Below are positions 4,375 to 64,000 of a stretch of 64,000 nucleotides of DNA, piece after piece. How positions within the stretch are numbered: position 1 is the first letter of the stretch; each line of letters opens with the position of its first letter. The position numbers and the translations under genes are program-made. The notes under the pieces were generated by a model that saw nothing but the letters and a program-made list of their open reading frames with translations, had not been told where the DNA came from and searched no databases. Source of the stretch: Methanomassiliicoccales archaeon (lineage in GTDB: Archaea > Thermoplasmatota > Thermoplasmata > Methanomassiliicoccales > JACIVX01); contig JAWCLO010000001.1 in assembly GCA_038850735.1 (NCBI GenBank), forward strand, positions 16,138-80,137. Reading direction: 5' to 3'.

Positions 4375-5250
4375 TTATGGAACAACCTTTGTGCCACAAT
4401 CCTTTATGCCCAAGAGCTCGTTGAGTATAGAATGTGGCGTCTTGCCACAGACCATATGAGCTGTTTTCACGCCGTTCATTATAGCAATACGACATGCCTC
4501 GAGCTTGGGCACCATTCCATCTTTTACGACACCATTCGCGATCAAATGATCGATTTCTTTAAGAGAAACTCTTGGAATAACCGTTGCACCATTACCATTT
4601 TCTTTCATAATGCCAGGAACATCTGTCACAAGAAAGATCTCCTCTGACCGAAGGGCTCTGGCAATGTGAGCTGCGACCGTATCCGCATTGACATTTACGC
4701 GTTTTCCATTTTCGTCCGTGCAAATTGGATATATCACGGGCACAAAGCCACTTGCACATAGGAGATTGATTGGAGTGGGATCAACGCAGGATACCTCGCC
4801 AACATTCCCTAGATCTACAAGATAAGAATTGCCATTTTCATCTTTAACTGGAACGGGAGACATCCTTCTGCAAACAATCATTTTTCCTTCAGCGCCCTCC
4901 ATTCCGACTGCTTTGATTCCAGCTTTCTTGAGAGAGAGCACGATCTTCTCATTGATATTTTTAAGAACTCTCATGACAACCTCGAGAGTTTCGTCATCGG
5001 TGATCCTGAGCCCAGCTACTTTCTTGACCTCCTTTCCCAATTTCTTCAACTCTTCATTTATCTCCGGTCCGCCGCCATGTATGATGATAGGTCTAATTCC
5101 GAGACTAACGAGAAGAGCAATATCTTCGCAGAAACTTGCCATATCTCCGTTTCCGTTGAGGGCGCTTCCACCAAACTTGATGACTATTTTCTTGTGTTTC
5201 AATTTTGCCAAACGGAAGGCAAATTCCCTCGGAAATTCAATATTTTTCAT
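4375..5250 (-). CDS. argB: Acetylglutamate kinase
   Basis: 291 aa amino-acid kinase fold (VIKFGGSAL, IIHGGGPEI, VNVNADTVAA). Confidence 0.92.
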   Translation of the reverse strand: MKNIEFPREFAFRLAKLKHKKIVIKFGGSALNGNGDMASFCEDIALLVSLGIRPIIIHGGGPEINEELKKLGKEVKKVAGLRITDDETLEVVMRVLKNINEKIVLSLKKAGIKAVGMEGAEGKMIVCRRMSPVPVKDENGNSYLVDLGNVGEVSCVDPTPINLLCASGFVPVIYPICTDENGKRVNVNADTVAAHIARALRSEEIFLVTDVPGIMKENGNGATVIPRVSLKEIDHLIANGVVKDGMVPKLEACRIAIMNGVKTAHMVCGKTPHSILNELLGIKDCGTKVVP

Positions 5251-8985: not shown

Positions 8986-10393
8986 GGGAATGCTTGATCA
9001 AGTCCTCGAATTCACCTCCTCTTTGAATCTCGATAAACGTCTCGCATGGTACGATGTAGTTGGTTCAATAGCACATGTAAAGATGCTCTCTAAACAAGGC
9101 ATCTTGAGCGATAAAGAATGTAAAGCTATTGTTGATTGCCTGAGAAGAATGCTTGAGAAGATAAACTTGGGTGAGTTCAATCCCCACCATAGTTTTGAAG
9201 ACATCCATTCCTATATAGAATTTGAAATTGTCAAAGAATTGGGTGATACGGGAAAAAAAGTACATACCGCTAGAAGTAGAAATGACCAAGTTGTTACCGA
9301 TTTCAGGATGTTCGTAAGAGATGCAGCTCTTGAATTAATGACACTGATCTGTGATCTTGAGAAGACACTTTTGGCATTGGCAAGAAAGCATACAAAAACA
9401 GTAATGCCAGGTTTTACTCACCTTCAGCATGCCCAACCGATTACCTTAGGCCATCATTTACTTGCTCATTTTGCAAGGTTTGAAAGAGATTTTATGCGAT
9501 TTGCCAAGAGCTACGAGCGAATAAACGTCTCTCCACTTGGAGCAGCAGCGATGGCTGGTACAACATTTGAGATTGACAGATTCTTCACAACTCGACTGCT
9601 TGGGTTTAGATATCCTTCGAAAAATTCGATTGATGCAGTTTCAGATCGGGACTTTGTGGCAGATTTCATTTTCAACTGTAGTATGACGATGATCCATCTT
9701 AGTTCACTATGCGAAGAGCTCATTATATGGAGCACTCCTGAGTTTGGATTTATTGAATTCGAGGACGCTTACTCAACGGGTAGCTCGATCATGCCCCAAA
9801 AAAAGAATCCCGATATAGCGGAGTTAGTTAGGGCTCGATCTGCAAGGGTTATGGGGAATCTTAATACCATTCTAGGCGTGATAAAGAGTTTGCCACTCGC
9901 CTATAACCGAGATCTCCAAGAAGACAAGCCTGCTCTCTTTGACGCGTACGATACAACGAAATCCTGCCTGCGCATGCTCGCTGAATCCCTGTCGTCCATA
10001 AATGTCAATGTCGGGAAAATGAGGAAGAGTGCTGAGCAGGGGTATTTGAATGCGACAGATCTTGCAGACTATCTCGTGCTGAAAGGTATTCCTTTTAGAG
10101 AGGCTCATGAGCTCGTTGGAAAAATCGTCAAATACGCGATCGAAAATAACAAGAAACTCGAAGAACTTGATATTTTAGAGATGAAGAGATTCTCCGATAA
10201 GATTGACGATGATGTGGCTTCTTTTCTTTCAATCGATGCATGTATCGATAGGAGAAAGACATACGGAGGAACCTCTCCAGAAGCCGTCAAGAATCAAATC
10301 GCAGAATGCACGCTATTGTTGAAAAGACAAAGAAATTTCACTTCTTACGAAAAAGCTAGGCTGAAAAAAATATGGCAGAGACTTCTTTCATGA
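8948..10393 (+). CDS. argH: Argininosuccinate lyase
   Basis: Fumarate-lyase signature GSSIMPQKKNPD. The track start at 8915 would overlap argG by 71 nt. The in-frame GTG at 8948 gives VSNKTLWQGRF, the usual ArgH N-terminus. The start choice is an inference. Confidence 0.9.
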   Translation: MSNKTLWQGRFDKGMLDQVLEFTSSLNLDKRLAWYDVVGSIAHVKMLSKQGILSDKECKAIVDCLRRMLEKINLGEFNPHHSFEDIHSYIEFEIVKELGDTGKKVHTARSRNDQVVTDFRMFVRDAALELMTLICDLEKTLLALARKHTKTVMPGFTHLQHAQPITLGHHLLAHFARFERDFMRFAKSYERINVSPLGAAAMAGTTFEIDRFFTTRLLGFRYPSKNSIDAVSDRDFVADFIFNCSMTMIHLSSLCEELIIWSTPEFGFIEFEDAYSTGSSIMPQKKNPDIAELVRARSARVMGNLNTILGVIKSLPLAYNRDLQEDKPALFDAYDTTKSCLRMLAESLSSINVNVGKMRKSAEQGYLNATDLADYLVLKGIPFREAHELVGKIVKYAIENNKKLEELDILEMKRFSDKIDDDVASFLSIDACIDRRKTYGGTSPEAVKNQIAECTLLLKRQRNFTSYEKARLKKIWQRLLS

Positions 10394-12424
10394 TCCTTGT
10401 GCCAAAGCCCTAGCCAAGTTGACGATGTTGACTACCTGCATCCCGGAATCCGTGATTCTAATTGCATCCTGGAAATTTCTTTCGCAGAATGAGCATGCAG
10501 TGACGAGATGTGAAGCACCAGTCTTCTTCGCCTGCTCAAGGCGCTTCCCTGCAATGAAGGTTGCTAGTTCAGGATGACTCTTTTTCACTCCGGCACCAGC
10601 ACCGCAGCAAATAGCTCTATCCTTTGTAAATTCCATTTCAGTTAACACTAGGCCAGGAATCGACTCAAGGATCAATCGAGGGGGCTCAAAAATTCCTCTG
10701 TGCCTACCAAGGTCGCAGGGATCGTGGTAGGTGACTTGAAGATGCGATCTATCGAACGAAATTCGACCATCATCAATAAGTGATGCAATTGTCTGAGTGA
10801 TGTGCTCAATTTCAATGTCGAATGATGAATCATAATGTGAGTAGATAGATAGAGTATTAAAACAACCAGGACATGGGGTGATGATTTTTCTTACGCCAGC
10901 CTCTTTTATTTTCTGAATGTTCCTTTGCACTAATGATAAGAAAATGTCTTTCGCTCCAATCTTATAGAATGGTGATCCGCAGCACATTTCATTAGAACCC
11001 ATGTATGCAACATTAATACCCACCGATTGAAGAATTTCGACCGAACTTCTTGAGATTTCCGGGGCTCGAAGAGAATTGAAACAACCGGCAAAAAAAAGAA
11101 TCTCACCGCTTGTTGGCAAATCTAGACCATGAGCCCATTGTGGACGACTTCCAGAGGGTTCATTCCATGGATTCCCTGATGCTGCTACATTCTTAATCAT
11201 TTCTTCTTGTGCGGGCAGCGGCAAGAAACCCTGCTTAATCGCCTTATACCTCGCCTCTCTTATCAAATTGGGAATATCGATTCTTAGAGGACACATCTCT
11301 TTGCAGAGTCCGCATTCTGTGCAGAAGGTAAGGCCACCGCCAATAGCGTGTTCATACCCGTCAAGCTCAGCGGCGAAGCATACACCTCTTCCGCCAAGAT
11401 ACGCATGACTGCCAAAATCTGGACCAAGAATGTCGTAAACTGGACATTTCAATAGACAGCTTCCACAATTAATACAATATAACACTTCTTTGTTTTCAAT
11501 AAGGCTTCTGCCATTGTCAAGAAGTATAAGCACTACCTCCTTCGGACCGTGCATCCCGTAGAACATAATCTTTTCGATGTCTGCAGTTCTACTGGGAGCA
11601 CTGATGACATCAATAAACGAACTGTTCAGACTGCCGGTTCCATATAGAATCTGAATCTTCGCTAAATTCATAGCCTCATCGAGATTTGGCACGATTTTTT
11701 CAATTGAGCTGATTATGATGTGCTTCTTAGGGCGCCGAGCGCACGCTGTAATGTTTCCTTCATTGTGCACGAGAATGATCGATCCTTCTTCCGCAGCAAT
11801 GAAATTGGCACCAGTTATTCCAATCGACGCTTGAGAAATGAAGCACGTGATTTCATTTCTTATTGCCTCTGTGAGTTTCTCAGGCGTGGGCTCTATTTTC
11901 TGTCTCAAATGCTTGCTTAGTATTAGTGCAACATCGTATCTCGTGAGATGTGCCGCTGGACCAGTTGGGTGTACTGTACGTTCCTTGGCTACCTGAATTA
12001 TGCGGTCTCCTGCATCCGTTTCGATGCATACGATTCCTTTCGATTCAAGAAAACCCGTGAGCTCGATTTCCTTCGAAACGTTGGATTTGGATTTGACCAC
12101 AAGTTTCTCGCCTCCAATCTCATCCAGAATCATGTCAAGAGCTTCTTGCTTGGAGTGGGCGATTCGAACTCTAATGCCGTTTGCGCTCATGCGCTCAACA
12201 GCTTTTTTCACGATGCTAAGATCCCTAAATGTCTGCTGCCGGACTTCCCTTGCCCTTTCCATTCGCTCATTTAATTTTTCAATCATTTCCTTATTCTTTT
12301 CTTGCGAGTGTATTGCTGTTTCAAAAGCACGACGCATGCCCTCTAATTTCCCATAATTCTCTATTGCGCTTCTAATCATGGTATGCGTAATCTTCGCAAA
12401 GAAGTCCGGTGCGTTTTTCATCAA
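10388..12424 (-). CDS. Fusion oxidoreductase: N-terminal LUD (LutB/LutC-like) domain, 2x[4Fe-4S] ferredoxin domain, and two CCG cysteine-rich domains (LutA/HdrD/GlpC-like)
   Basis: 678 aa. Fe-S motifs CINCGSCLLKCP and CTECGLCKEMCP. CCG-type motifs (MCCGSPF, HDPCDLGR, ICCGAGAG). The N-terminal third resembles the lactate-utilisation LUD domain. Assignment is by motif recall. Confidence 0.7.
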   Translation of the reverse strand: MMKNAPDFFAKITHTMIRSAIENYGKLEGMRRAFETAIHSQEKNKEMIEKLNERMERAREVRQQTFRDLSIVKKAVERMSANGIRVRIAHSKQEALDMILDEIGGEKLVVKSKSNVSKEIELTGFLESKGIVCIETDAGDRIIQVAKERTVHPTGPAAHLTRYDVALILSKHLRQKIEPTPEKLTEAIRNEITCFISQASIGITGANFIAAEEGSIILVHNEGNITACARRPKKHIIISSIEKIVPNLDEAMNLAKIQILYGTGSLNSSFIDVISAPSRTADIEKIMFYGMHGPKEVVLILLDNGRSLIENKEVLYCINCGSCLLKCPVYDILGPDFGSHAYLGGRGVCFAAELDGYEHAIGGGLTFCTECGLCKEMCPLRIDIPNLIREARYKAIKQGFLPLPAQEEMIKNVAASGNPWNEPSGSRPQWAHGLDLPTSGEILFFAGCFNSLRAPEISRSSVEILQSVGINVAYMGSNEMCCGSPFYKIGAKDIFLSLVQRNIQKIKEAGVRKIITPCPGCFNTLSIYSHYDSSFDIEIEHITQTIASLIDDGRISFDRSHLQVTYHDPCDLGRHRGIFEPPRLILESIPGLVLTEMEFTKDRAICCGAGAGVKKSHPELATFIAGKRLEQAKKTGASHLVTACSFCERNFQDAIRITDSGMQVVNIVNLARALAQGS

Positions 12425-26846: not shown

Positions 26847-27656
26847 TTATCTCATTCCCTTATTTAACTTCACGAGTGCTGCGGCGAGTGCTATTGAATC
26901 AACATAGTTACGTTTAGCCCTCGACGTATCGATAAAAACCTTCTCCAGATTCAAAATAGGGGCACCAAGCGCACGCCATCCTCCTAAGAAGTGCAGAGCT
27001 CTGAAGATCAAATTGCCCGAAATACCGTCAGGTGCAAGAATCATGTTGCGATCCAAAACCGCATTCTCGATGAGAATTTCGCAGTCTTTCACGTCAAACT
27101 TCGATTCCCTAAAGTATTCAGCTATTGCTTCAGCTTCATCAAGAGTCCTGTCCACCACTGGATGCCTTCCCCTATCTCCCTTCCTTCCGCCTGAAAGAAT
27201 ACCAACCTTTGGCTCGATTCCCAACCTCGTGAGAAATCTCATTCCGAGATCTATGAGCTCAATTTTCTGTTCAAGTGTCCATCCTTCATCAACGCCAACT
27301 GGTGCTAGCAGTATCAGGTTGCCTTTTGGTGGTTGAAGAAGAGCCGCACGCAGAATTTTGTCGAGAGAGAAAAAGCGCCTGACCGATGACATCGTATTGT
27401 TTGCCTCGAGATTTCCCCTTACGGCAGCATCGATTTTCCCCGCGCTCAGGGCTTCAACCAGAGTACTCGCATCGCCAAAAAAGTGCACTTCAGATATCCC
27501 ATGTCTTTTCGCACCCTTGATTATCAAATTCTTACGAGCATTGTCGCCAATCAATCCGATGCCAATTTTTGCGCTGGAATTTTTTGCCATTTCTGCAATA
27601 TTCTGAGCCGTGAGCACTTCCTCATTATCAGAATGGGATATATTCATTTTTTTCAC
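26847..27656 (-). CDS. Pta/PlsX-fold protein, MtxX / methanogen-marker-4-like (tentative)
   Basis: 269 aa. The APDGISGNLIFRAL motif resembles the PD..GN...K motif of the phosphate acyltransferase/PlsX/MtxX superfamily. Lies 12 nt upstream of queD. Assignment is by recall only. Confidence 0.45.
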   Translation of the reverse strand: MKKMNISHSDNEEVLTAQNIAEMAKNSSAKIGIGLIGDNARKNLIIKGAKRHGISEVHFFGDASTLVEALSAGKIDAAVRGNLEANNTMSSVRRFFSLDKILRAALLQPPKGNLILLAPVGVDEGWTLEQKIELIDLGMRFLTRLGIEPKVGILSGGRKGDRGRHPVVDRTLDEAEAIAEYFRESKFDVKDCEILIENAVLDRNMILAPDGISGNLIFRALHFLGGWRALGAPILNLEKVFIDTSRAKRNYVDSIALAAALVKLNKGMR

Positions 27657-34492: not shown

Positions 34493-37400
34493 TTATCCAT
34501 TTTCTGGAAATATCCTTAGTCTAAAAGCCCATAGATCTGTGTTTCCTTCATTGCCAACTCCAAACAGTGGCGAAATAAAGCGGCTTGGCACCTCACAAAT
34601 CATCAATCCCATCGTGATAGTCGCATCTACGGGCTCCCTTTGTATTATCCCCAGCAAGGTGTAAACATTCGTTTCCATCATGACCGCCACACGAAACTTC
34701 AATTCCTGATTACATGAAAGGAATAGCTTAGAGAAACCCGTGAATGCAAATATCTCAAAGCGTAAATAGATATCTTGCAGAAAGGAAACAATTTCGTTCC
34801 TCGCAAATACCTCAGCATCTGGAGTTGTGATCCTTCGAATTGAGCTAGATATGACAGAAAGAGTGCTTTCAAGTGCTTTGGCAACAGTATCGCCTTTGAA
34901 TACGAGACTCACTGCGAAGCCTGTCCCAGTGATACAAGTAGCATCTGAGATTGTAACCACGACATCCAATTTGAATTCCAAAATAAAGTCGCCTACCGCC
35001 TCGATGCATTTTCTCAGTACTCTGCGAATTATTTCCTCTATTAGATTACCGAGTCCGTCTAAATCCGCGCTTGAAACTGAAAGCTCGGAAAACGCTCGTA
35101 ATGCGGCATCACTAAAAACCTTGTAAACCCAGTCGTCACTACTTGGAGTTAACGCATTTCTCCCATTTGCTTTTCCACGAGTCTCTGATTTGAATATCCA
35201 TCGATCGTTGCCATCATATGCTCGTTGCCACGTGCGATCGTCATTGTAAAAATCCGTTGTCAATGGCGCCATATCGACCTTGCGTCCCGAAGGATCAATT
35301 AGTGCAATACACTCCGATAATGGGAATTTCCATTCTCCCCCATTGTCTAAAACCTGACCTTGGAGTACAAGAATTCTGTAACCGTGTGGCTCAATGCAAT
35401 CCTCCTCTATAGTGGCAATTTCTTGAATTCCGTGCATAGTCTGGATTGACCAACCGGATAGACTTACGAAGCGATCAGTAGGATTGTACAATTCAATCCA
35501 TTCACGACCGAAATCGGTACCTGGGGGATTTTGCTCGTATTCATTTATGACAAGATGATTTGCAATGGGAGACCTATATTTGATCTCGAAGCCAGCATCA
35601 AGGGAACCGATCAAGCCTGGAATGGGAAGAGGTATTCTAGATAAAAATTGACCTATTACAGGAATGCTTGATAAGGCAAATCTTAATTTTTTGTATTGTA
35701 AAGCAAGAGGCATATGCAACTCAAGCGTCGAATTGCCGACTTTTCCCGTAACTTGAACGAAGTGGTTGAAAATTCTCATCAGTGGATCTACAAGTACGTC
35801 AAGAAACCATCGTTTTGACTGGATAGTTGCATTCGCAATGATATCGTAGTCTCCATTCGCCATTCGCAAGAATCTAATCGCTACAGATATGTTCGTGGTT
35901 CTATGGGAAAGCCAGCAAGTGATTCTAAGGATATCCTTAGTGAAACCAAGAGCAATCTCCAATGGATTGGTTACCACCTGGAATTTGAGACCCCAGATCG
36001 TTAAATTAAACTGGATCTTTCCTAACAAAGATATGAGATTATCGCAGATCCATCCGAGCACTGAATCCATACCGGCGACAAACAAATTTCTGATATTTTC
36101 GATGGCAAATTGCAATGTCGCCGAAAGACTCTCAACAAATCTAATAGAATATGTCGTCGCGGCACTCAATAAAACACCCATTGTTGATTGCAAACTATCG
36201 ACAATACTGATGAAGGGAGCAATCCCACCGCAAATTTCATTCCATATCTTTTCAAGAAAGTTGGCTACATCTCTCCCAAAAGTCGATGTAGATTGATAAT
36301 GGACTCCATGCAACGGCCATGCACTCTGTGCCGAAATTGAGAAGTCTAAATCAAATTCTATTTCTCGACTCATGGTCAATGGAAATTGCCCCAATAACCT
36401 ACTTTCTGGTGCGCTAGCAGATATTGAGATTAAGTAGGATCCCCTAACAGAAACATCCCATTGCGTGATATATGGCAGGAAAGTTAGATTGGTTATATTT
36501 GTTATATGGCGATTTGGATAATAGTGCGATTTCTCCTGGAATTCCCACGGTCTTGTTATCTGGATGAAAACACGCTCGTCATCAGAATTGTCGTCTGCCA
36601 TTTTGTCAAATTCATTACCTGCATTTATTATCTCAATTGACTCAAGAAGGACTCTTCCTGTATCGGTAAGCAATCGAAAACTCTTCAACTCTGGGGATGC
36701 TACAAAGATCTCGTCCCCTCGTAATTCAAAGGCATTCTCAATATCTCCCAATAGACGAGTTACCGTTTTCGTCAACATTGAATTGATTCCTGGGAGTTCT
36801 CCCACGATTCCTAACGCTAGGGATAGAATTTCACTGCGAAGGGGTCCGTATGAATAATCATCAATGGCTCCTAAAAATGCTTCCTTCAAGATCTCGATCA
36901 AATGCGATACCTTTATATCGAACATCTCAGCAATTTCGTTTTTCAAACCCCACTCTGTTGACTGTTCTATCTCACAGAGAATTTCGATTGTCGCTTTTCT
37001 TTCCGCTTCATCGTCAAAACTATATGAACTCAAGATTAAATCGTCAACAATTAGAGTTGCAAGGGATTCTATTGCGGCGTGTATCGATTCATTTTTCTTG
37101 AAAAGTTCCTGCTGATACTGTTCAAAAAAGTCTACCAAGGCTTCTCCCATGCTATTGAAAATAGATTTCAATCTGGCGGTTGCTTCAATCACGGACTCAA
37201 GACTTGAATTCGAGGATTGAAGAGCACGCAAAAATGATTCTTTAAGGGAAGAGGCATAAGAAATATTGTCTGCGGGATTGCGATTGATTTCGACCTGAGG
37301 AAGATTTTTAGAATCTCTGATTGCCAAAGCAATGGATTTCACAAAGTCAATGAGAGAATCAGCCAGATAATGAGTTTCTAGTTTGTATTCAATGGCGAAT

Positions 37401-38785
37401 TTCTTCCAAAGCTCGCTTGAGAATATATCTACAGAGGGAAAATCTAGGGGATAGTTTCCCTGGATACAAAATATAATATTTTCTCCGCGGCTGTTTGTCA
37501 AAACGACTTTATGAGCCGGAATATACACGCTCGCGTCAGGTCCTCCATAGTTAAAATACCGGTAATTACTAGCGGAATACCCTGCTCTTTCAAGAGTCGT
37601 CATCATCCAATTTATTATTGATTCTTCAATAGCACTATTGCCAAGAATCGATTCGATGAAGTTGGACAATGCTACTTCTGAAAGGTCTGCAGCCTGCTCA
37701 ATGGTGTTTACTAAATCGATGATATGCAGGTATTCAAGCCATCTAAGAACAACGGCATCAGCAGTTGCAAACAGGACCTGTGAAACCAACATTGAATAGC
37801 TATATTCACCTGCGGAAAAAAGTTGTAGAAACAGTTCTGCTGGATCGACCATGCCTGAGAAATTCTTATCAGATATTAGTCTCCAAGAGTCATAGGATGC
37901 GCTATCCGAGATTAGTGATGCGATCAAACGATTGTCCAGATTTCGTAGATATTTTCGATCTTCAATCAACAAAGCCAAGCGTATTGCATTCTTGACGTCT
38001 TCTTCTGTGAGAATACTAGCAGTACCGTATTCTCCAAGTTTAGCATCGACGCCGTATCCCTTCAATATTCTATCTTGAACAAGTGCCGTTAGTTGATACT
38101 TCACAATTTTCTCAAATTCTCCCCCATCATTCGAAATTGATTCGGATAACGTTGCAATCCTATTTGCTAAAAAGGGAATCGGAATATATATCGGCTTGGA
38201 GATCTCAAAGGTCTTCGTTAAGTTTCCGTGCGAAGAGGTTGCGAAAAGAGTGAAATTTCCACAAATGCAAAAATATGCAGGTACACTTATTTCATGGCTC
38301 TCTGCTTCATCATCTTCATTAATTGCCAATAATTCCTGATAAACTTCTCCCATACTTGCTTTCAAAAACGCAAGATAGACATCGAACTCTTCGACAAAGA
38401 TTGCATAGATCTCCGCATGCTTTGGGAAGGCATTGTCGACATACTCTTTGGAAGCTTCCCTAAATTCTCTATTTATTTCGCTTTCATCCATGATCGAGGA
38501 TTTTCCTATGATATCGAGAGCAATGAGGTATAGCGATTGCTGCAATTCATCAGCTGCTTCGCTCACCGAAGAGAACAGTTTATGCATAGTCTCAAAAGAT
38601 GGAGTTGCCGTATCATTTTCCGAGCTGTAGTCTGATACTAGCGCGATAGTCATGGAGCTGATTAATAATATAATGACAGCTACCAGCGAAAATGCCATTT
38701 GACCAGTTCTCGATCTTGTGTCACGATTGAAGATTCGTCTGCAACGAGAAGTCGGCTTCAAGAGAATTGCCATCATAATTGGCAA
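34493..38785 (-). CDS. Giant (1430 aa) uncharacterised protein: N-terminal membrane anchor, ~1000-aa unassigned region, lamin-tail domain (LTD), 222-aa unassigned C-terminus
   Basis: Uninterrupted ORF. The track start is TTG at 38785; an ATG-ATG at 38776 is more likely. A hydrophobic helix (AFSLVAVIILLISSMTIALV) follows a basic N-region. The LTD-like segment VINEYEQNPPG..EWIELYNP...GW.I maps to nt 35162-35551 (aa 1079-1208). The rest has no recognised motif. Confidence 0.75.
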   Translation of the reverse strand: MPIMMAILLKPTSRCRRIFNRDTRSRTGQMAFSLVAVIILLISSMTIALVSDYSSENDTATPSFETMHKLFSSVSEAADELQQSLYLIALDIIGKSSIMDESEINREFREASKEYVDNAFPKHAEIYAIFVEEFDVYLAFLKASMGEVYQELLAINEDDEAESHEISVPAYFCICGNFTLFATSSHGNLTKTFEISKPIYIPIPFLANRIATLSESISNDGGEFEKIVKYQLTALVQDRILKGYGVDAKLGEYGTASILTEEDVKNAIRLALLIEDRKYLRNLDNRLIASLISDSASYDSWRLISDKNFSGMVDPAELFLQLFSAGEYSYSMLVSQVLFATADAVVLRWLEYLHIIDLVNTIEQAADLSEVALSNFIESILGNSAIEESIINWMMTTLERAGYSASNYRYFNYGGPDASVYIPAHKVVLTNSRGENIIFCIQGNYPLDFPSVDIFSSELWKKFAIEYKLETHYLADSLIDFVKSIALAIRDSKNLPQVEINRNPADNISYASSLKESFLRALQSSNSSLESVIEATARLKSIFNSMGEALVDFFEQYQQELFKKNESIHAAIESLATLIVDDLILSSYSFDDEAERKATIEILCEIEQSTEWGLKNEIAEMFDIKVSHLIEILKEAFLGAIDDYSYGPLRSEILSLALGIVGELPGINSMLTKTVTRLLGDIENAFELRGDEIFVASPELKSFRLLTDTGRVLLESIEIINAGNEFDKMADDNSDDERVFIQITRPWEFQEKSHYYPNRHITNITNLTFLPYITQWDVSVRGSYLISISASAPESRLLGQFPLTMSREIEFDLDFSISAQSAWPLHGVHYQSTSTFGRDVANFLEKIWNEICGGIAPFISIVDSLQSTMGVLLSAATTYSIRFVESLSATLQFAIENIRNLFVAGMDSVLGWICDNLISLLGKIQFNLTIWGLKFQVVTNPLEIALGFTKDILRITCWLSHRTTNISVAIRFLRMANGDYDIIANATIQSKRWFLDVLVDPLMRIFNHFVQVTGKVGNSTLELHMPLALQYKKLRFALSSIPVIGQFLSRIPLPIPGLIGSLDAGFEIKYRSPIANHLVINEYEQNPPGTDFGREWIELYNPTDRFVSLSGWSIQTMHGIQEIATIEEDCIEPHGYRILVLQGQVLDNGGEWKFPLSECIALIDPSGRKVDMAPLTTDFYNDDRTWQRAYDGNDRWIFKSETRGKANGRNALTPSSDDWVYKVFSDAALRAFSELSVSSADLDGLGNLIEEIIRRVLRKCIEAVGDFILEFKLDVVVTISDATCITGTGFAVSLVFKGDTVAKALESTLSVISSSIRRITTPDAEVFARNEIVSFLQDIYLRFEIFAFTGFSKLFLSCNQELKFRVAVMMETNVYTLLGIIQREPVDATITMGLMICEVPSRFISPLFGVGNEGNTDLWAFRLRIFPENG

Positions 38786-39769: not shown

Positions 39770-41320
39770 ATGATTGTAAAACAAAGTTCGTTACAAAAAG
39801 GACTCCCGAAAGATACTCAATCAATTTGCCCAGAATGCAGAAGAATTATATCTGCAAGAATATTCGAAGCCAATGGAAAAGTTCTAATGGAAAAGGAGTG
39901 CCCAGCCCACGGTAAATTCGTTGATACGTATTGGTCAGATGCAGAATTATACCTCAAGGCTGAGAAATTTGCGTACGATGGGATCGGGGTCATCGATCCT
40001 TTTATCAAAGATGCAACTGGATGTCCAGAAGAATGCGGCCTATGCAACCTCCATTTGAGTCATACTTCCTTGGCGAACATCGATCTAACAAATCGGTGCA
40101 ATCTTAGGTGCCCAATATGCTTTGCAAATGCAAATGCAGCGGGATACGTTTACGAGCCTTCATTCGAAGTAGTAGTTACAATGCTTAAGACATTGAGAAA
40201 TCAAAGACCCGTTCCCACCCCGGCTATCCAATTCTCTGGCGGAGAGCCAACGATATATCCACATATAACTGAAGTTGTGAAGAAAGCAAAGGAGTTGGGA
40301 TTTGCACAAATTCAGATCGCAACAAATGGCCTGAGACTCGCTCAAGATGAGGAATTTCTTAGACAGATATCAGAAGCGGGGCTAAATACAATCTACTTAC
40401 AATTCGACGGTTTGCGGGAAGAAATTTACATTAAGACTAGAGGTCGGCCACTTCTTGAGACAAAAAAGAAGGTTATTGACAATCTAAGAAAAATGGACAG
40501 GCATCCTTCTGTCGTGCTTGTACCCACGATCGTTAAGGGCGTAAATGATGACCAAGTTGGACCCATTTTGAAATACGCGATTGAAAACTCTGATATTATC
40601 AGAGGTGTTAACTATCAGCCAGTTGCCTTCACAGGTAGAATAAGCAAGGAGGAAAGAGACAAGGAGAGATACACGCTAACGGACTTGGTTCATGATATTG
40701 AGCTTCAAACAGGATATGCTTCAAAAGATGATTGGTACCCTGTACCAAGTGTTGTACCTGTATCGACATTTGTCTCTGCTATACTCAACCAACCGAAGGT
40801 TACGTTTACTGCTCATCCCCATTGTGGCTTAGCCACATATCTCTTTGTTAAAGATACTAATAACGTCATTCCTCTGACGAGATTCGTGGAAGTAGAACCC
40901 CTCTTTGAGGAATTGTTTTATCTTTCTGAGAGAACCGAGAGAGCTAGGATAAAATTGTTGGCAAAAATCAAGGCTCTAGGCATACTCCGGAAACATATCG
41001 ATAAAGAAAAAACACCAGAAGGACTCAAGATATCAGACTTCCTGCAACTGCTGAGTACTGTTTTAAGCGACGAGACAAAAGAAGGGCTCGCAGAATTCTC
41101 TTGGAACATGATGTTTGTTGGTGGAATGCACTTCCAAGATGCGTACAATTATGACATCGAGAGAGTAAAGAGGTGTGTGATTCATTATGCAGTTCCTGAT
41201 GGAAGGATCATACCCTTCTGCGCTTACAACGGCGGACCAACATACAGGGAAGAAATAGAAAGGAAGTATTCAGTTCCACTCGAAGAGTGGAGAAAGACTA
41301 GGGGTAGCGATTATACCTAG
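39770..41320 (+). CDS. Radical SAM protein, tetraether lipid synthase (Tes / GDGT-MAS)-like
   Basis: 516 aa. N-terminal rubredoxin-like CPEC...CPAHG, an extra cluster motif CPEECGLC, radical SAM CNLRCPIC and GGEPT. The length and architecture match what I recall for archaeal Tes. It is directly followed by ferredoxin and GGR. Confidence 0.7.
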   Translation: MIVKQSSLQKGLPKDTQSICPECRRIISARIFEANGKVLMEKECPAHGKFVDTYWSDAELYLKAEKFAYDGIGVIDPFIKDATGCPEECGLCNLHLSHTSLANIDLTNRCNLRCPICFANANAAGYVYEPSFEVVVTMLKTLRNQRPVPTPAIQFSGGEPTIYPHITEVVKKAKELGFAQIQIATNGLRLAQDEEFLRQISEAGLNTIYLQFDGLREEIYIKTRGRPLLETKKKVIDNLRKMDRHPSVVLVPTIVKGVNDDQVGPILKYAIENSDIIRGVNYQPVAFTGRISKEERDKERYTLTDLVHDIELQTGYASKDDWYPVPSVVPVSTFVSAILNQPKVTFTAHPHCGLATYLFVKDTNNVIPLTRFVEVEPLFEELFYLSERTERARIKLLAKIKALGILRKHIDKEKTPEGLKISDFLQLLSTVLSDETKEGLAEFSWNMMFVGGMHFQDAYNYDIERVKRCVIHYAVPDGRIIPFCAYNGGPTYREEIERKYSVPLEEWRKTRGSDYT

Positions 41321-46262: not shown

Positions 46263-46609
46263 TTGAAAATTTGTATAACCGCAAAAGGGAATAAGATAAA
46301 CTCGGAATTTGATGAGTGCTTCTGCTCTTCTCCGTATTATCTTTTGTTGGATGATGAAACTTGTGAATTCTTAGTTTTAAGAAATACTGACGTTACTTTT
46401 GAAGCAAAGGGATTAAAATTGCAGAGACGCTTATCGAGAATGATATCGATATTTTAATTACTGGTCGTATTGGCCATGCCGCATTGAGAAGGCTTGAACG
46501 CAAAAGCATTTGCGTAAGAATCGTGCGGGAATCAAAAAAAGTAATAGATATGCTCGAAAACAATTATCCACGGATCGCTATCCAGCTATGCCAGAAATAT
46601 TCCTTTTGA
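46263..46609 (+). pseudogene. NifX/NifB-C-terminal-like (dinitrogenase FeMo-cofactor-binding fold) small gene, interrupted by a frameshift
   Basis: Frame 1 (TTG 46263) reads MKICITAKGNKINSEFDE...DVTFEAKG and then stops at 46457. The +2 frame continues SKGIKIAETLIENDIDILITGRIGHAALRRLERKSICV... to a TGA at 46607-46609. The two parts together make a ~115-aa NifX-like protein. The shift lies near the gcaaaggg run (~46405-46415). Confidence 0.55.
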
Positions 46610-46736
46610 AAATACGGTTGAAATCTGTGTAAACAAGAGTGATCAATCAAAGTGACAAGAGCAGTTCCAGAAAGCAATTGATCCTCAATGCCTCCGGGAC
46701 CGATTTTTTGAAAAATCCTCGAAGAAGCTCCAGAAG

Positions 46737-46846
46737 TGCGAGGGGCCGGATTTGAACCGGCGAACCTCTTCAGGAACAGATCTTGAGTCTGTCGCCATTG
46801 GCCGATGTGATCTCGCCCATCATTGACCAGGCTTGGCTACCCTCGC
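46737..46846 (-). tRNA. tRNA-Leu (anticodon CAA) with a 25-nt insertion (putative intron) in the D-loop
   Basis: Hand fold: acceptor GCGAGGG/CCCTCGC, D stem GCCA/TGGC, anticodon stem ACAGA/TCTGT with loop CTCAAGA, long variable arm TCCTGAAGAGGTTC, T arm GCCGG-TTCAAAT-CCGGC, discriminator A and no encoded CCA. It is 110 nt against 85 nt expected. Confidence 0.85.
46798..46822 (-). other. Putative non-canonical tRNA intron (D-loop, around position 20/21) within tRNA-Leu(CAA)
   Basis: The insert is TGATGGGCGAGATCACATCGGCCAA. The junction is ambiguous by up to 3 nt because CAA is repeated at both ends. A relaxed bulge-helix-bulge can be drawn: GATG/CATC helix, AAT bulge, GGTC/GGCC helix, AA(T) bulge, D stem. 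Confidence 0.6.
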
Positions 46847-54174: not shown

Positions 54175-57117
<2,943 letters not shown>

Positions 57118-57894: not shown

Positions 57895-58242
57895 GTGTCG
57901 CTTGTGTTAGGAGCCATAAACATCATAGCGGGCCTCATACTAGCAATGGGCATTCTGAACAGCATTCCAGCTCTTGGAAAGCACCTGGAGAAACTCGCTA
58001 AATGGCTGGGGAGATTTCAAACCATAATCGGGATCATTGCTATAATCGTAGCGATAATTTGGTGGGGATCATTACTTGGAAGTATCGTTGCGATAATCGC
58101 TGGTCTTGTACTGTTGACAGGGATATTACCAAGCATACCTGTTTTTGGCAAGCACTTAGAGAAACTTGCAAAGTGGCTAGGTAGATTCCAAACCATAATT
58201 GGAATCATCGCGATTATTGTTGGTATTTTGGAATTGTTGTGA
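57895..58242 (+). CDS. Small membrane protein (115 aa) made of two tandem 57-aa units
   Basis: GTG start preceded by GGGGGGAT. Each unit is a TM helix, an amphipathic GKHLEKLAKWLGRFQ segment and a second TM helix. No family was recognised. Confidence 0.65.
   Translation: MSLVLGAINIIAGLILAMGILNSIPALGKHLEKLAKWLGRFQTIIGIIAIIVAIIWWGSLLGSIVAIIAGLVLLTGILPSIPVFGKHLEKLAKWLGRFQTIIGIIAIIVGILELL
57901..58239 (+). repeat. Intragenic tandem duplication (2 x ~171 nt)
   Basis: Codons 28-52 (57976-58050) and 85-109 (58147-58221) encode an identical 25-aa stretch. They differ at 16 of 75 nt, and every difference is synonymous (counted codon by codon). Confidence 0.9.
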
Positions 58243-59918: not shown

Positions 59919-60317
59919 CTACGGCACAAAAAAGCATGTTGTAGTAGTCGGAAGCTTTTTTCGCAGCTCGAAGAGGTGCGGATAAAATATGCGAATCTCA
60001 TCTTCTTTTTCTGGTTCACGACCTATGACTTTTGACACGAGCTTGACTTCGATTTTGCCGGATACCCTCCAAGCGCCTCCTGAATCGGTAGTGTCTGTCA
60101 TAATAATGATTGGCAGTCTCAGCCTTTCTTTGTCATCATCAACCAGGAGTGAGGAAATATAATTGAGTTCTTCTTTTGAGATCGAATACACGTTCCCGTC
60201 TTTGCCGCAGTAGGATGGCTTATCTTCTTGAAGGAGATCTGCCAACCTCTTTCTCGCAGTTGGAAGATGTCTATTCATGGATGCAATGAATTTTTCAAAT
60301 GAGCTTTCACTAAACAT
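59919..60317 (-). CDS. DUF61 / UPF0216-family protein
   Basis: 132 aa. The LRLPIII...G.W.V.G and C-terminal LRKKLPTTT pattern is recalled from archaeal UPF0216 proteins. Confidence 0.55.
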   Translation of the reverse strand: MFSESSFEKFIASMNRHLPTARKRLADLLQEDKPSYCGKDGNVYSISKEELNYISSLLVDDDKERLRLPIIIMTDTTDSGGAWRVSGKIEVKLVSKVIGREPEKEDEIRIFYPHLFELRKKLPTTTTCFFVP

Positions 60318-60468: not shown

Positions 60469-61074
60469 ATGCCCGAATTAGGTAAATCGATAAAAGCAAC
60501 AGTTGTTTTCACCATCATCGCTGGTTCAGCGATAGGAATCATACTCGCTGGTATCTTGGGCAACAGCAAAATGCTCATCAATGAAAGTTTCGAGAATAAT
60601 GTGCTTGATTGGCAAATCGGTAAAGATTTGCCGATTGATCCAAACACGCATCTACCAGTGTATGCATCCGTGCAGACCACGAACATTCGCTCGAGGACCG
60701 GTGAATTTTCCCTGCTTCTGCAAATTGATGGAAGGCAGGACGATGGGACTATCTGGATAGCGAAAAATATAACCTTAGGGGGAGCCAAATTTGGGAAAAT
60801 CGAAATGGCGTTCTATGTATTCAGTGAGCAGGCCTCTTTCAATGTCAAGGCTAATGTGGTGGCTTATGTAGGACCATGCCCTCCATTGAATGAATCGTAT
60901 TTCGAGGTATTAGGTAACGCTGATCGTAAGACAGGATGGACGGAATTTATTGTAGAGAAAAATATTTTTTTCAAAAATACAGACTATGCTTGGATTGCAC
61001 TCGGCATTACTGTTGCATGGGAGACGATATTGGAATATACTATCGATGATATCACCGTGAGATTGCTGTGGTGA
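60469..61074 (+). CDS. Membrane-anchored hypothetical protein (201 aa), beta-rich ectodomain
   Basis: N-terminal TM helix (VVFTIIAGSAIGIILAGIL). The remainder has no recognised motif, and a jelly-roll or CBM-like fold is only a guess. Confidence 0.45.
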   Translation: MPELGKSIKATVVFTIIAGSAIGIILAGILGNSKMLINESFENNVLDWQIGKDLPIDPNTHLPVYASVQTTNIRSRTGEFSLLLQIDGRQDDGTIWIAKNITLGGAKFGKIEMAFYVFSEQASFNVKANVVAYVGPCPPLNESYFEVLGNADRKTGWTEFIVEKNIFFKNTDYAWIALGITVAWETILEYTIDDITVRLLW

Positions 61075-61231
61075 TAAATTTCACATCCAGAAATTTCTTT
61101 TGCAGAAATTTCTTTTTTTGCTAAGATGCTATTCCACGATTTAATCGGATGCGCACTGTTTTTTAGGTTGCAATCGTCGCATCCTATTTATGTAGTATGC
61201 AAGAATTATGACTAGCTATTGACTTAATAAA

Positions 61232-62518
61232 GTGAAGATGATGGCTTCCAAGGTCGATGAAGAGACGAAGAAAATGCTTGCCTACCACCCTTGCTACAAT
61301 GAAACGGCTCATAGGCATTGTGCGAGAATGCATGTACCAGTTGCACCACGCTGCAATATCCAGTGCAACTACTGCAATCGCAGGTATGACTGCATGAATG
61401 AAAGCAGACCAGGCGTGACAAGTGAAATTCTCTCGCCAATGCAAGCCATCGATAAAATCCGATATGTTAAGCAAAGAATGCCTCATTTAACAGTTATCGG
61501 AATAGCTGGACCTGGTGATCCGCTTGCTAATGAAGAAACTTTCGAGACCCTTGGAGGCATCAAAAAAGAATTTCCTGACCTGGTTTTGTGTCTGAGCACT
61601 AATGGCCTCCTGCTACCGAAATTCGTCGACAGGCTTGCCACGCTAGGTGTTAAATTCATCACTGTGACAGTTAACGCAATTGACCCCCAAATTGCTGAAA
61701 AGATTTACGATTTCGTGATTCTTGACGGAAAGGTCTATAAGGGAGTCGAGGGCGCAAGAATTCTGATCGAGAATCAGCTACATGGCATCGAATTAGCATC
61801 GAAATCGGGCATGTTAGTGAAAGTAAACACCGTCATGATACCTGGCATCAATGATGCTCACATTCCGGAAATCGCAAAAAAGCTCAGGGAACTGGGGGCG
61901 TATATCGTTAATATCATCCCGCTAATCCCAATTCCTGGGACGAAATTCGGTCAATTAAGAGCTCCGACCCCAAAAGAAAGAAAAATGCTGCAAGATCTTT
62001 GCGAAGATACGATCCAGCAGATGCGTCATTGCAGGTTCTGCAGAGCTGATGCTATAGGTTTGCTAGGTGAGGATCGGTCGGCCGAGTTTGCACATGTAAC
62101 ATGTGGCATTAAGTTGACTGAAGCCGGTCCAATTACTGTGCAGCTGGAAGGGAAGACAAAATACAAAGTTGCTGTTGCCTCCAAGGATGGCAGAAATGTT
62201 GACGTGCATTTTGGTCATGCTACCAGATTTTTGACTTACGAGGTTGAGGGGAAGAAGATCAAGAGGATTGGCGAGCTTCATGTCGACATCTCCGATGAGG
62301 TCCCAATGTTTGGCAGAGATCATTACAACAAGATCGAGCGAGCCGTTGATGCGCTCCAAGGCTTTGATATTATAGTTGCCAAGAAATTTGGCGATCGCGC
62401 GGTGGAAGCGTTGAGGCGTAGAGGAATTACGGCAATTGCCAGATCTGGTAGCATAAAACAAGCTATCTTGGATGCAATTGAAATCGCATTTGAAGAGCGA
62501 GTCCATACTTTTGAATGA
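61232..62518 (+). CDS. nifB: NifB-like radical SAM protein with C-terminal NifX-like domain
   Basis: HPCYNETAHRHCARMHVPVAPRCNIQCNYCNRRYDCMNESRPGVTSEILSP closely matches the remembered NifB N-terminal signature. The C-terminal part (YKVAVASKDGRNVDVHFGHATRF...) is NifX/NafY-like. The start is GTG 61232 or ATG 61238/61241. Confidence 0.8.
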   Translation: MKMMASKVDEETKKMLAYHPCYNETAHRHCARMHVPVAPRCNIQCNYCNRRYDCMNESRPGVTSEILSPMQAIDKIRYVKQRMPHLTVIGIAGPGDPLANEETFETLGGIKKEFPDLVLCLSTNGLLLPKFVDRLATLGVKFITVTVNAIDPQIAEKIYDFVILDGKVYKGVEGARILIENQLHGIELASKSGMLVKVNTVMIPGINDAHIPEIAKKLRELGAYIVNIIPLIPIPGTKFGQLRAPTPKERKMLQDLCEDTIQQMRHCRFCRADAIGLLGEDRSAEFAHVTCGIKLTEAGPITVQLEGKTKYKVAVASKDGRNVDVHFGHATRFLTYEVEGKKIKRIGELHVDISDEVPMFGRDHYNKIERAVDALQGFDIIVAKKFGDRAVEALRRRGITAIARSGSIKQAILDAIEIAFEERVHTFE

Positions 62519-62527
62519 GGTATAGAT

Positions 62528-64000
62528 ATGAAAGGGTCGGATCTTCTCGTAAGATGTCTTGAAAACGAAGGTGTTGACAGGATTTTTGGCATACCGGGTG
62601 AGGAAAACCTAGACGTCATGGATAGTCTCATCGACTCGAATATTGAATTTGTCTTGACGAAACACGAAGAATCTGCCTCTTTTATGGCGGAGGTCTTTGC
62701 TTATCTTACAAATAAACCTGGAGTATGCCTTTCCACACTCGGTCCCGGAGCCACAAATCTGATCACAGGTGTCGCTGATGCTTATTTGAACAATCTGCCG
62801 ATGATAGTCTTAACCGGACAAACACGTACTGAAAGGGCATATCACCCGCAAAAGCAGTACATCGATCTCGTTGATCTTTATAAGCCTATCACCAAAGACA
62901 GTATAAGTGTTCGATCATCTACGAGAATTCCTGTTATCATTCGGAATTCCTTTATGACAGCTTTGCAGGAGAAGCCTGGACCAGTGCACTTAGAGTTACC
63001 AGAAGACGTGATGAAATCTGATGCCGAGGGCACGCCACTTCGGAAATCGATGAACATAAGATGTGGCGGAGACGAGAAATCTAAAGAGGCGGCACTAGAA
63101 GCAATCCGATCGTCCAGCGCACCACTCATCCTTGCAGGACGAGGAGTGCTGAGGACAGAAGCTTCTAAGGAATTGGTTGCTTTCGCACGAAGCGCCAATA
63201 TCCCTGTTGTCCACACATGGATGGCAAACGGCATCATGCCTTTTGATGATCCGCTCAGCCTGCATTCCGTAGGTCTGAGGACGCATGACTTCATGAGAAG
63301 GGCTTTTGAACTCGCAGACCTCGTTATCACCATTGGATACGATGTTCTAGAGTTTCAGCCAGTTTTTTGGAATATTGGCAGGGCAAAAAAAATCGTTCAC
63401 ATCGGCCAGTCCGAAGCAGAAATTTCGCAGAAGTATAGTCCTGACATTCAGCTGATTGGGGACCTTCAAAAGACTCTAGAAGCACTGACATCGGAGAAAA
63501 TAGATAAAGAAAATTGGACAGCTGCTTTAAGAGATCAGCTACATGCAAAGTTATCCGAACTGACGCCTGATGGGGGATTAGTGAAACCGCAGACTGCAAT
63601 TCGATTACTAAGAGAATGCCTTGGGAGGGAGGATATCGCCGTGTGCGATGTCGGAGCTCACCTACTGTGGATGGAGAAACTATATCCAGTATATGCTGAA
63701 AAGACGCTCATCGCTTCGAATGGACTTCTGCCAATGGGATTTGGCGTTCCAGCCGCGATCGCCGCTAAGCTGGTATATCCGCAAAGAAAGGTTGTTGCTG
63801 TGTGTGGCGATGGCGGGTTCATGATGACCGCGGCAGAGATCGAAACTGCGCTTCGTTTAAAGACCAATTTTGTGACCGTCATTTTTAATGATGGAGGATA
63901 TGGCATAATAAGAACCAGGCAGCAAAAAAATTTTGGCAGAACGATAGGTGTCGATTTCAAGAACCCTGACTTTGTCAAATTCGCAGAATCCTTTGGAGCA
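62528..64000 (+). CDS. Thiamine-diphosphate enzyme, acetolactate synthase large subunit-like; 3' end outside the window
   Basis: Not in the ORF track because it runs off the window. Hand translation from the ATG at 62528 is open for 491 codons: MKGSDLLVRCLENEGVDRIFGIPGEENL..., GPGATNL, and the TPP motif CGDGGFMMTAAEIETALRLKTNFVTVIFNDGGYG. It starts 9 nt after nifB. Confidence 0.85.
   Translation, partial: MKGSDLLVRCLENEGVDRIFGIPGEENLDVMDSLIDSNIEFVLTKHEESASFMAEVFAYLTNKPGVCLSTLGPGATNLITGVADAYLNNLPMIVLTGQTRTERAYHPQKQYIDLVDLYKPITKDSISVRSSTRIPVIIRNSFMTALQEKPGPVHLELPEDVMKSDAEGTPLRKSMNIRCGGDEKSKEAALEAIRSSSAPLILAGRGVLRTEASKELVAFARSANIPVVHTWMANGIMPFDDPLSLHSVGLRTHDFMRRAFELADLVITIGYDVLEFQPVFWNIGRAKKIVHIGQSEAEISQKYSPDIQLIGDLQKTLEALTSEKIDKENWTAALRDQLHAKLSELTPDGGLVKPQTAIRLLRECLGREDIAVCDVGAHLLWMEKLYPVYAEKTLIASNGLLPMGFGVPAAIAAKLVYPQRKVVAVCGDGGFMMTAAEIETALRLKTNFVTVIFNDGGYGIIRTRQQKNFGRTIGVDFKNPDFVKFAESFGA

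Follow-up and report, generated by a model that had tools for sequence, protein, structure and literature searches.

The stretch of DNA analysed here, 64,000 nucleotides from a Methanomassiliicoccales archaeon (assembly GCA_038850735.1, contig JAWCLO010000001.1, positions 16,138 to 80,137; hereafter ‘the window’), carries near its 3' end a nifB gene with no nitrogenase gene around it. Judged from its sequence and predicted fold, the open reading frame (ORF) at 61238..62518 on the forward strand is a genuine, complete NifB, in which a radical S-adenosylmethionine (SAM) domain is followed by a NifX-like domain. The locus itself is ordinary, its ‘orphan’ state being already explained by published work. 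It likely serves a methanogen of the Methanomassiliicoccales as its constitutive housekeeping nifB, and its product would make NifB-co with the activation complex of methyl-coenzyme M reductase (MCR) as its main client. The two-domain architecture appears fixed across the order Methanomassiliicoccales rather than peculiar to this gene, and such an archaeal two-domain NifB is the sole element that we did not find in the searchable literature, where it seems to have been overlooked.

Counted from its ATG, the gene encodes 426 amino acids. A start at the in-frame GTG 61232 would make the product two residues longer, but the resulting 428-residue translation returned no match in an exact look-up, and the NCBI record identical to the product (P0001) begins at ATG 61238; the recorded form is thus the 426-residue one. 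This record, 100% identical over 426 residues, is entitled ‘MAG: nitrogenase cofactor biosynthesis protein NifB [Methanomassiliicoccales archaeon]’ (MAG, metagenome-assembled genome). The identical protein is present on contigs from GCA_038870155.1, GCA_038847865.1 and two SRA assemblies, and two of these contigs show 0 and 2 base differences to the window across 4.7 and 5.5 kb, respectively. Against the TIGR01290 nifB equivalog the product scores 466.1 bits (cutoff 343.65, E 1e-139), with MoaA as the second-best family at 70 bits, and Pfam places Radical_SAM on residues 36-217 and Nitro_FeMo-Co on residues 319-414.

The catalytic domain (61256..62086, forward strand; residues 7-283) was aligned to the PDB entries 6y1x, 7jma and 7bi7. 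The best solved relatives (6Y1X, 7JMA/7JMB and 7BI7) are all single-domain NifBs which cover these residues only, and the identity of the SAM domain to the solved NifBs is about 50%. The translation contains the HPC motif (H17-P18-C19), H32, C39-x3-C43-x2-C46, C52, ExRP (55-58) and AGPG, followed by C118 within CLSTNG, TxTxN, C255 and C265-x2-C268-RxDAxG (here RADAIG). It therefore holds every motif of the set by which true NifBs were defined by Arragain et al. 2017 (PMC5715403), namely HPC, ExRP, AGPG, TxTxN and Cx2CRxDAxG, and the matching columns are invariant in an alignment of 130 Methanomassiliicoccales NifB homologs, from which all conservation counts given here are taken. Across this order-wide set the listed catalytic residues and motifs are constant in 130/130 sequences, with the exception of C39 (129/130). 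The RS-cluster cysteines C39, C43 and C46 line up with those of 6y1x, and the K1/K2 ligand set (C19, H32, C52, C118, C265 and C268, plus C255) is invariant in all 130. The three cluster-binding Cys/His sets, which the initial annotation had singled out for inspection, are thus complete, with no K-cluster ligand missing.

The predicted fold points the same way. An AlphaFold2 model built from 41 sequences has a mean predicted local distance difference test score (pLDDT) of 79.9, with confidence above 90 across most of the catalytic barrel and the C-terminal domain and low values in the cluster-binding linker (residues 263-304). In a Foldseek search of the PDB with this model, ranks 1-5 are all NifB crystal structures (6y1x, 7bi7, 7jmb, 7jma; E 1e-25 to 1e-31), with target-normalized template-modelling scores of 0.82-0.95 for the top NifB structures, whereas the nearest non-NifB radical-SAM structure follows at E ~1e-8, at least about 17 orders of magnitude behind. 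A hidden Markov model score above the equivalog cutoff, about 50% identity to solved NifBs, invariant ligands and motifs and these top fold matches together support the identification as a true NifB made by the initial annotation.

The second domain (62186..62473, forward strand) matches PF02579 with 50.9 bits (cutoff 26.3), as the initial annotation had foreseen in describing a NifX-like C-terminus. The model is confident there (pLDDT ~90 over residues 308-425), and Foldseek matches the domain to the NifX chain (9ian_F) of the NifEN-NifX complex 9IAN (E 4.5e-7, 115 columns, 27% identity). It is also homologous to the C-termini of bacterial NifBs (BLASTP E 1e-8 to 1e-14). The fusion is present in all 130 Methanomassiliicoccales NifBs examined; the best 120 homologs are each about 425 residues long with both domains, and the organism-named ones among them all come from Methanomassiliicoccales or from unclassified Euryarchaeota MAGs. 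The initial annotation had described archaeal NifBs as usually consisting of the radical-SAM domain only. This agrees with reviews of 2017 (Arragain et al., PMC5715403) and 2026, in which the archaeal NifBs discussed are described as lacking a NifX domain, but it fails for this order, where all 130 proteins have two domains. A targeted search of the searchable literature returned no paper on a NifB-NifX fusion in this order. A whole order of methanogens with the ‘bacterial’ NifB-NifX fusion contradicts the statements of the NifB reviews, and the fusion bears on whether nifB-nifX arose in archaea or in bacteria.

To place the protein, a neighbour-joining tree of 150 radical-SAM domains was built, and a scan of GTDB species representatives provided 20 further loci of the order. 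The NifBs of the order form one clade (bootstrap 100), every member of which has a C-terminal extension of 114-152 residues, and within it the window protein groups with Methanomassiliicoccus sp. and UBA472 (bootstrap 98). The phylogenetic placement proposed in the initial annotation is thereby obtained within the order but not below it, the sister group of the clade receiving bootstrap values of only 0-7. By distance, the nearest outgroup is a 433-residue NifB, in a cluster that includes a protein of ‘Candidatus Thermoplasmatota archaeon’, and its NifX-like region remains below the Pfam cutoff (22.9 < 26.3). Mean distances are 0.61-0.66 to the bacterial two-domain NifBs and 0.69 to the Methanothrix NifB, values too similar for a call of horizontal transfer. 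The ranking from a pattern scan was likewise discarded as a sign of bacterial origin, since longer alignments favour full-length bacterial over single-domain archaeal NifBs. Among the further loci, that of ‘Ca. Methanarcanum hacksteinii’ (L020) shows by Pfam a DUF61 gene, a two-domain NifB (PF02579, 44 bits) and an alanyl-tRNA synthetase (AlaRS) gene, alaS. Two species-representative bins labelled ‘Methanomicrobiales’ and ‘Lachnospiraceae bacterium’ (L021 and L022) carry a DUF61-nifB-AlaRS-related locus whose NifB lies inside the gut Methanomassiliicoccales clade, and are probably mislabelled or contaminated.

As regards nitrogenase, the initial annotation had stated that no such gene occurs in the 64 kb, and this holds: Pfam detects neither an Oxidored_nitro nor a Fer4_NifH domain among the 44 larger ORFs of the window, and six-frame tblastn of the window with the cyanobacterial NifH and NifD of locus L033 returns only noise at E <= 10. 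A leuA-like gene of the window remains below the NifV model (403 < 462.9). Within 10 kb of nifB in 28 archaeal loci of the order, tblastn finds no NifH/NifD-like sequence either. In the upstream intergenic region (61075..61237, forward strand), the presumed archaeal promoter as read from the sequence, there is no nitrogen operator GGAA-N6-TTCC upstream of nifB; the single match in the window, at 5214, is within chance, and the use of NrpR in this order is uncertain, which makes this weak evidence. The gene is embedded in a block conserved across the order: 23S rRNA, DUF763, DUF61, nifB, (the thiamine diphosphate (ThDP) enzyme gene), alaS, ribosomal proteins and rpoD. A housekeeping context is suggested by this block, by the lack of NifH/NifD near nifB in the 28 loci and by the missing operator.

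The separation of nifB from nifHDK, which the initial annotation had taken for an anomaly, is the normal state in methanogens and was reported for this order in 2014. Indeed, Borrel et al. 2014 (PMC4153887, Additional file 3) describe the non-diazotrophic ‘Ca. Methanomethylophilus alvus’ and ‘Ca. Methanomassiliicoccus intestinalis’ as having no nif/anf clusters ‘but only a nifB’. In Methanococcus and Methanocaldococcus, nifB is unlinked and has no nitrogen operator, and another function was suggested for it (Lie et al. 2022). Saini et al. 2023 (bioRxiv 10.1101/2023.10.20.563283) found NifB in 245/245 methanogen proteomes and nitrogenase in about 67% of them; the same study reports that NifB of Methanosarcina acetivorans is essential even with fixed nitrogen and is not nitrogen-regulated, and that NifB of the non-diazotroph Methanothrix thermoacetophila is functional. 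As to the client, the MCR activation complex was reported to hold three [8Fe-9S-C] L-cluster-like cofactors on its components McrC and Mmp7 (Ramirez-Amador et al. 2025, PMC12176620), with NifB ‘probably involved’ in forming them. A McrC-like protein belongs to the core of the three reference Methanomassiliicoccales genomes (PMC4153887). The question of what NifB does without nitrogenase is therefore already answered: methanogens need it regardless of nitrogen fixation, most likely to supply L-clusters for MCR activation.

In the scheme that we favour, the N-terminal domain would merge two [4Fe-4S] clusters into one that gains a carbide from SAM and a ninth sulfide, yielding the [8Fe-9S-C] NifB-co (L-cluster), as expected from homology. 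The fused NifX-like domain would then most likely receive and shield this product through His324, as NifX does through His35, the NifX structure serving as the guide, and would subsequently pass it to client proteins. The principal client would most probably be the MCR activation complex, by extension from other methanogens, in which the L-cluster-like cofactors of McrC/Mmp7 would relay low-potential electrons to F430. Nitrogenase would be an additional client if encoded in the genome.

That nitrogenase would be the only client is a different proposition, according to which the gene is the unlinked nifB of a diazotroph with nifHDK(EN) elsewhere. M. luminyensis, of the same order, does possess nifHI1I2DKEN, an anf-like cluster and two nifB genes (PMC4153887, Additional file 3), diazotrophic methanogens in general have nifB away from their nif operons, and about 67% of methanogens possess nitrogenase. 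However, the ortholog, its neighbourhood and its architecture are all kept in the gut-clade family Methanomethylophilaceae, ‘Ca. M. alvus’ retains nifB in spite of having no nif clusters, the operator is missing upstream, and the M. acetivorans protein is essential despite fixed nitrogen. The nitrogenase and MCR roles are compatible; it is nitrogenase as sole role that is disfavoured, and we regard it as unlikely.

A nitrogenase-like (NFL) system encoded elsewhere, formed by fused NifH/NifE-like proteins or by a Mar/Nfl-type reductase, might also be what NifB serves. Each of the three reference genomes of the order has two fused nifH/nifE-like genes of unknown function (Borrel et al., PMC4153887, Additional file 3); bacterial NFL clusters have colocalised NifB homologues to which no function is assigned, and L-like clusters are carried by the Group IV-A NFL enzymes (2026 review). 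Such NifB homologues are described as colocalised with their system, though, whereas neither the window nor the flanks of nifB up to 10 kb in the 28 loci hold a NifH/NifD-like gene; the binding of an L-cluster by a fused NifH/NifE-like protein is without support, and CfbCD uses no L-clusters. These observations make an NFL client improbable. The initial annotation had proposed a client of the Nfl/Cfb/Mar type or an unknown Fe-S pathway: the published candidate for such a pathway is now the MCR activation complex, and a Cfb-type client is not expected, CfbD being stated to contain no L-cluster-like clusters (PMC12176620).

If NifB chiefly supplies MCR activation, the putative role of its fused domain can be considered residue by residue. 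The histidine of the HFG motif is H324, which we take to be the equivalent of His35 in the VDQHFG motif of Azotobacter vinelandii NifX. At this position His is found in 105/130 homologs of the order and Gly in 25/130, including every sampled gut-clade sequence. Two other residues, the linker cysteine C289 and the NifX-domain histidine H362, are fixed in 130/130 Methanomassiliicoccales NifBs and are not conserved in bacterial NifBs. In A. vinelandii, His35 ligates NifB-co (PMC13128457). The invariant C289/H362 together with the His-to-Gly swap suggests a lineage-specific mode of cluster binding.

Moreover, the fusion is kept in the gut clade, whose member ‘Ca. M. alvus’ reportedly has no NifEN; this suggests a NifX-type role outside nitrogen fixation and constitutes a modest, testable lead. 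We tentatively go one step further: in this order and in at least one other Thermoplasmatota lineage, the fused domain may be a built-in L-cluster chaperone that delivers [8Fe-9S-C] to McrC/Mmp7 rather than to NifEN, with C289/H362 as ligands or docking determinants. We hold this to be possible, yet doubtful enough to fall short of a favoured explanation. If true, methanogenesis would for the first time be linked to a NifX-type trafficking step, and the finding would overturn the repeated view of archaeal NifBs as devoid of a NifX domain. In any case, the NifB-NifX of the order offers a natural system for the hand-over of L-clusters to non-nitrogenase clients. Targeting NifB has also been proposed as a means of methane mitigation, a point of relevance here as gut Methanomassiliicoccales inhabit ruminants and humans.

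Several points weigh against an MCR-directed NifB that carries its product on the fused domain. The gut-clade domain, if cluster-carrying, must rely on ligands other than the HFG histidine, C289 and H362 being the candidate alternatives. A Klebsiella NifB without its NifX domain kept its function (PMC5715403), and the NifX domain may therefore be dispensable. The interstitial carbide of the McrC/Mmp7 clusters of Methanococcus maripaludis awaits spectroscopic verification (PMC12176620), and the link between NifB and MCR activation in this order is drawn by analogy from other methanogens. Lastly, the genome evidence comprises the window and flanks of up to 10 kb, so that mcrABG, mcrC, mmp7 and nifHDK located elsewhere fall outside its scope.

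Immediately downstream of nifB, an acetolactate-synthase-like ThDP enzyme gene (62528..64000, forward strand; TPP_enzyme_N/M/C) runs past the end of the window. The 9-nt distance given in the initial annotation is exact: the nifB stop codon occupies 62516-62518, a GAGGT Shine-Dalgarno-like motif overlaps it, and the next ATG is at 62528. As read from the sequence, the spacer (62519..62527, forward strand) is placed for co-transcription, and the terminator scan finds no terminator-like site between the two genes; only the terminator half of this tool was used, its sigma-70 promoter scan being unsuited to archaea. Judging by the spacing, the ThDP gene is here probably on the nifB transcript. On the identical contig L001 it encodes 532 residues with TPP_enzyme_N/M/C domains, and its product scores 655 bits against NF006187, ‘acetolactate synthase large subunit’ (cutoff 509), while remaining below the biosynthetic IlvB model TIGR00118 (392 < 538) and below the AlsS models. 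The gene that follows it on this contig is alaS, not an ilvN-like gene; further 3' come a VIT1 gene, the ribosomal proteins S13, S4 and S11, rpoD and PolD.

Such a tight arrangement could be read as a dedicated two-gene pathway, for instance a new cofactor or metabolite route that combines radical-SAM cluster chemistry with ThDP carboligation. The genes lie 4-19 nt apart across the relatives L005-L013, likewise with no terminator-like site in the window pair, and the pair is kept in free-living lineages even where the identity of the ThDP proteins falls to 46-62%; four relatives at 59-69% identity preserve the whole block DUF763, DUF61, nifB, ThDP with a nifB-ThDP gap of 4-9 nt, and alaS comes directly after it in three of the four. 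By tblastn, however, a ThDP gene lies 3' of nifB only in the free-living clade (L001-L014 and L016), whereas the gut-clade loci (L015, L017-L026 and L029) have no ThDP homolog in the sequenced nifB flanks, up to 10 kb; there, nifB is directly followed by an AlaRS-related gene, and DUF61 is still upstream in most. With no ThDP gene next to nifB in these gut-clade loci, the partnership does not look obligate. The surrounding block is syntenic as a whole, so that the two genes may be neighbours through inherited gene order; by its scores the ThDP protein is an ordinary member of the acetolactate synthase family, and the leuABCD genes of the window fit a role in branched-chain amino-acid synthesis. 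A dedicated pathway thus appears very improbable, and the pairing looks like a clade-specific feature of gene order, not a functional partnership.

On the other side of nifB, a DUF61 gene (59919..60317, reverse strand; NF003153, 131 bits) is its divergent neighbour. This family of unknown function is found divergently upstream of nifB in nearly all of the loci L001-L026, gut clade included, and the DUF61-nifB pairing is more persistent than the nifB-ThDP one. A 201-residue ORF without family assignment (60469-61074, forward strand) sits between the two genes and is confined to L001-L004; at its position there is no ORF in L005/L006, which are 69% identical, or in L008, and a different family-less ORF in L007. 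Upstream of this group of genes, an archaeal 23S rRNA gene (54179-57107, forward strand) stands alone, with no 16S or 5S alongside it within the 64 kb, and keeps its place next to the DUF763-DUF61-nifB block in many Methanomassiliicoccales loci. It shares 96.6% identity with L005, 88% with L010, 85% with Methanomassiliicoccus sp. and 81% with the gut clade. Compared with about 0.43 for the remaining window, its GC content reaches about 0.55, which may hint at a thermophilic host. Between the 23S rRNA and DUF61 genes, a 115-residue predicted membrane protein (57895-58242, forward strand) shows an internal tandem duplication in which GKHLEKLAKWLGRFQTIIGIIAIIV occurs twice, and has no convincing family.

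Elsewhere in the window, a methanogenesis marker, Mmp4/MtxX, is encoded at 26847..27656 on the reverse strand (TIGR03270, 219.4 bits, cutoff 190), a family almost limited to methanogens (Borrel et al. 2014, PMC4153887). The host is accordingly identified by sequence criteria as a methanogen, on the basis of Mmp4/MtxX, the identical protein from a Methanomassiliicoccales MAG, the NifB clade and the archaeal 23S rRNA; mcrA itself was not seen. The Mmp4/MtxX gene adjoins genes of queuosine/archaeosine type (QueC, PTPS and a radical-SAM QueE-like protein) and dph2. The other genes of the window include those for arginine biosynthesis, thiDN, glycosyltransferases, thrS, leuABCD, queCDE, serS, Tes and succinyl-CoA ligase.

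The second, frameshifted NifX-like gene pointed out by the initial annotation at 46263-46609 is real: this stand-alone member of the NifX/NifB family (PF02579; 46263..46609, forward strand) has one frameshift near 46400, the repair of which gives a 115-residue protein with a PF02579 score of 41 bits. The frameshift falls at an AAAGGG run, and the gene may be a pseudogene or reflect an assembly error. Its product has FDECFCSSPYY at the usual HFG site, and a tRNA-Leu(CAA) detected by ARAGORN (46736-46816) adjoins it. We rejected a derivation of the fused NifB domain from this stand-alone gene, as BLASTP shows no similarity between them at E <= 1e-3.

Three further ORFs were recorded. The tetraether lipid synthase Tes (39770-41317, forward strand) is recognised by NF045702 with 669 bits, while Pfam sees only Radical_SAM and an HMPTM-type zinc ribbon. 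A 677-residue fusion (10388-12424, reverse strand) joins a LUD domain to a 4Fe-4S dicluster domain and two CCG domains; its N-terminal half is LutB/LdhH-like and its C-terminal half TfrB/HdrD-like, and it could be an oxidoreductase related to heterodisulfide reductase. A 1429-residue ORF (34493-38785, reverse strand), located in the part of the window with the lowest GC content (about 0.40), has a Lamin Tail Domain at residues 1074-1171 as its sole Pfam match.

Compared with known systems, the window NifB shares different traits with each. The NifB-like proteins of Mar/NFL clusters are also radical-SAM NifB homologues found outside nitrogen fixation, but their genes are colocalised with nflHDK/marHDK-type genes, of which there are none at the window nifB. 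The lone nifB of ‘Ca. Methanomethylophilus alvus’ and ‘Ca. Methanomassiliicoccus intestinalis’, compared here through its published description, belongs to the same order and likewise stands without a nif/anf cluster. The species representatives of gut-clade Methanomethylophilaceae that we examined share the DUF61-nifB arrangement and the two-domain NifB with the window, from which they differ in that nifB is not followed by a ThDP gene and the HFG histidine is replaced by Gly.

The NifX of A. vinelandii (9IAN chain F) has the same fold as the C-terminal domain, but is a separate protein there, whereas the domain is covalently fused to NifB here. NifX docks on NifE via its C-terminal helices; in those lineages of the order that lack nif clusters, ‘Ca. 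M. alvus’ being one, the fused domain would have no canonical NifEN partner.

Single-domain methanogen NifBs (Methanothrix thermoacetophila, 6Y1X; Methanothermobacter thermautotrophicus, 7JMA/7JMB/7BI7) have the same radical-SAM carbide-synthase core, motifs and K1/K2 ligands. Their genes are likewise located outside nif operons, and M. thermoacetophila, which has no nitrogenase, possesses a NifB that makes a functional cluster. These proteins stop after the catalytic domain, whereas the window NifB adds about 140 residues with a NifX-like fold. The bacterial two-domain NifBs (cyanobacteria, Proteobacteria, Paenibacillus) show the same order of radical-SAM and NifX domains, are colinear with the window protein over residues 5-420 at 43-48% identity, and have the NifX core AVA(S/T)xxG..V..HFGHA..F in common with it. 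They differ in context, as bacterial nifB lies in nif clusters (with NifH and NifD just downstream in L028 and L033) and the window nifB in a housekeeping setting, and in a linker about 20-30 residues longer than that of the window protein. They also have a conserved cysteine in YCQG, whereas the Methanomassiliicoccales NifBs have their own invariant C289 and H362.

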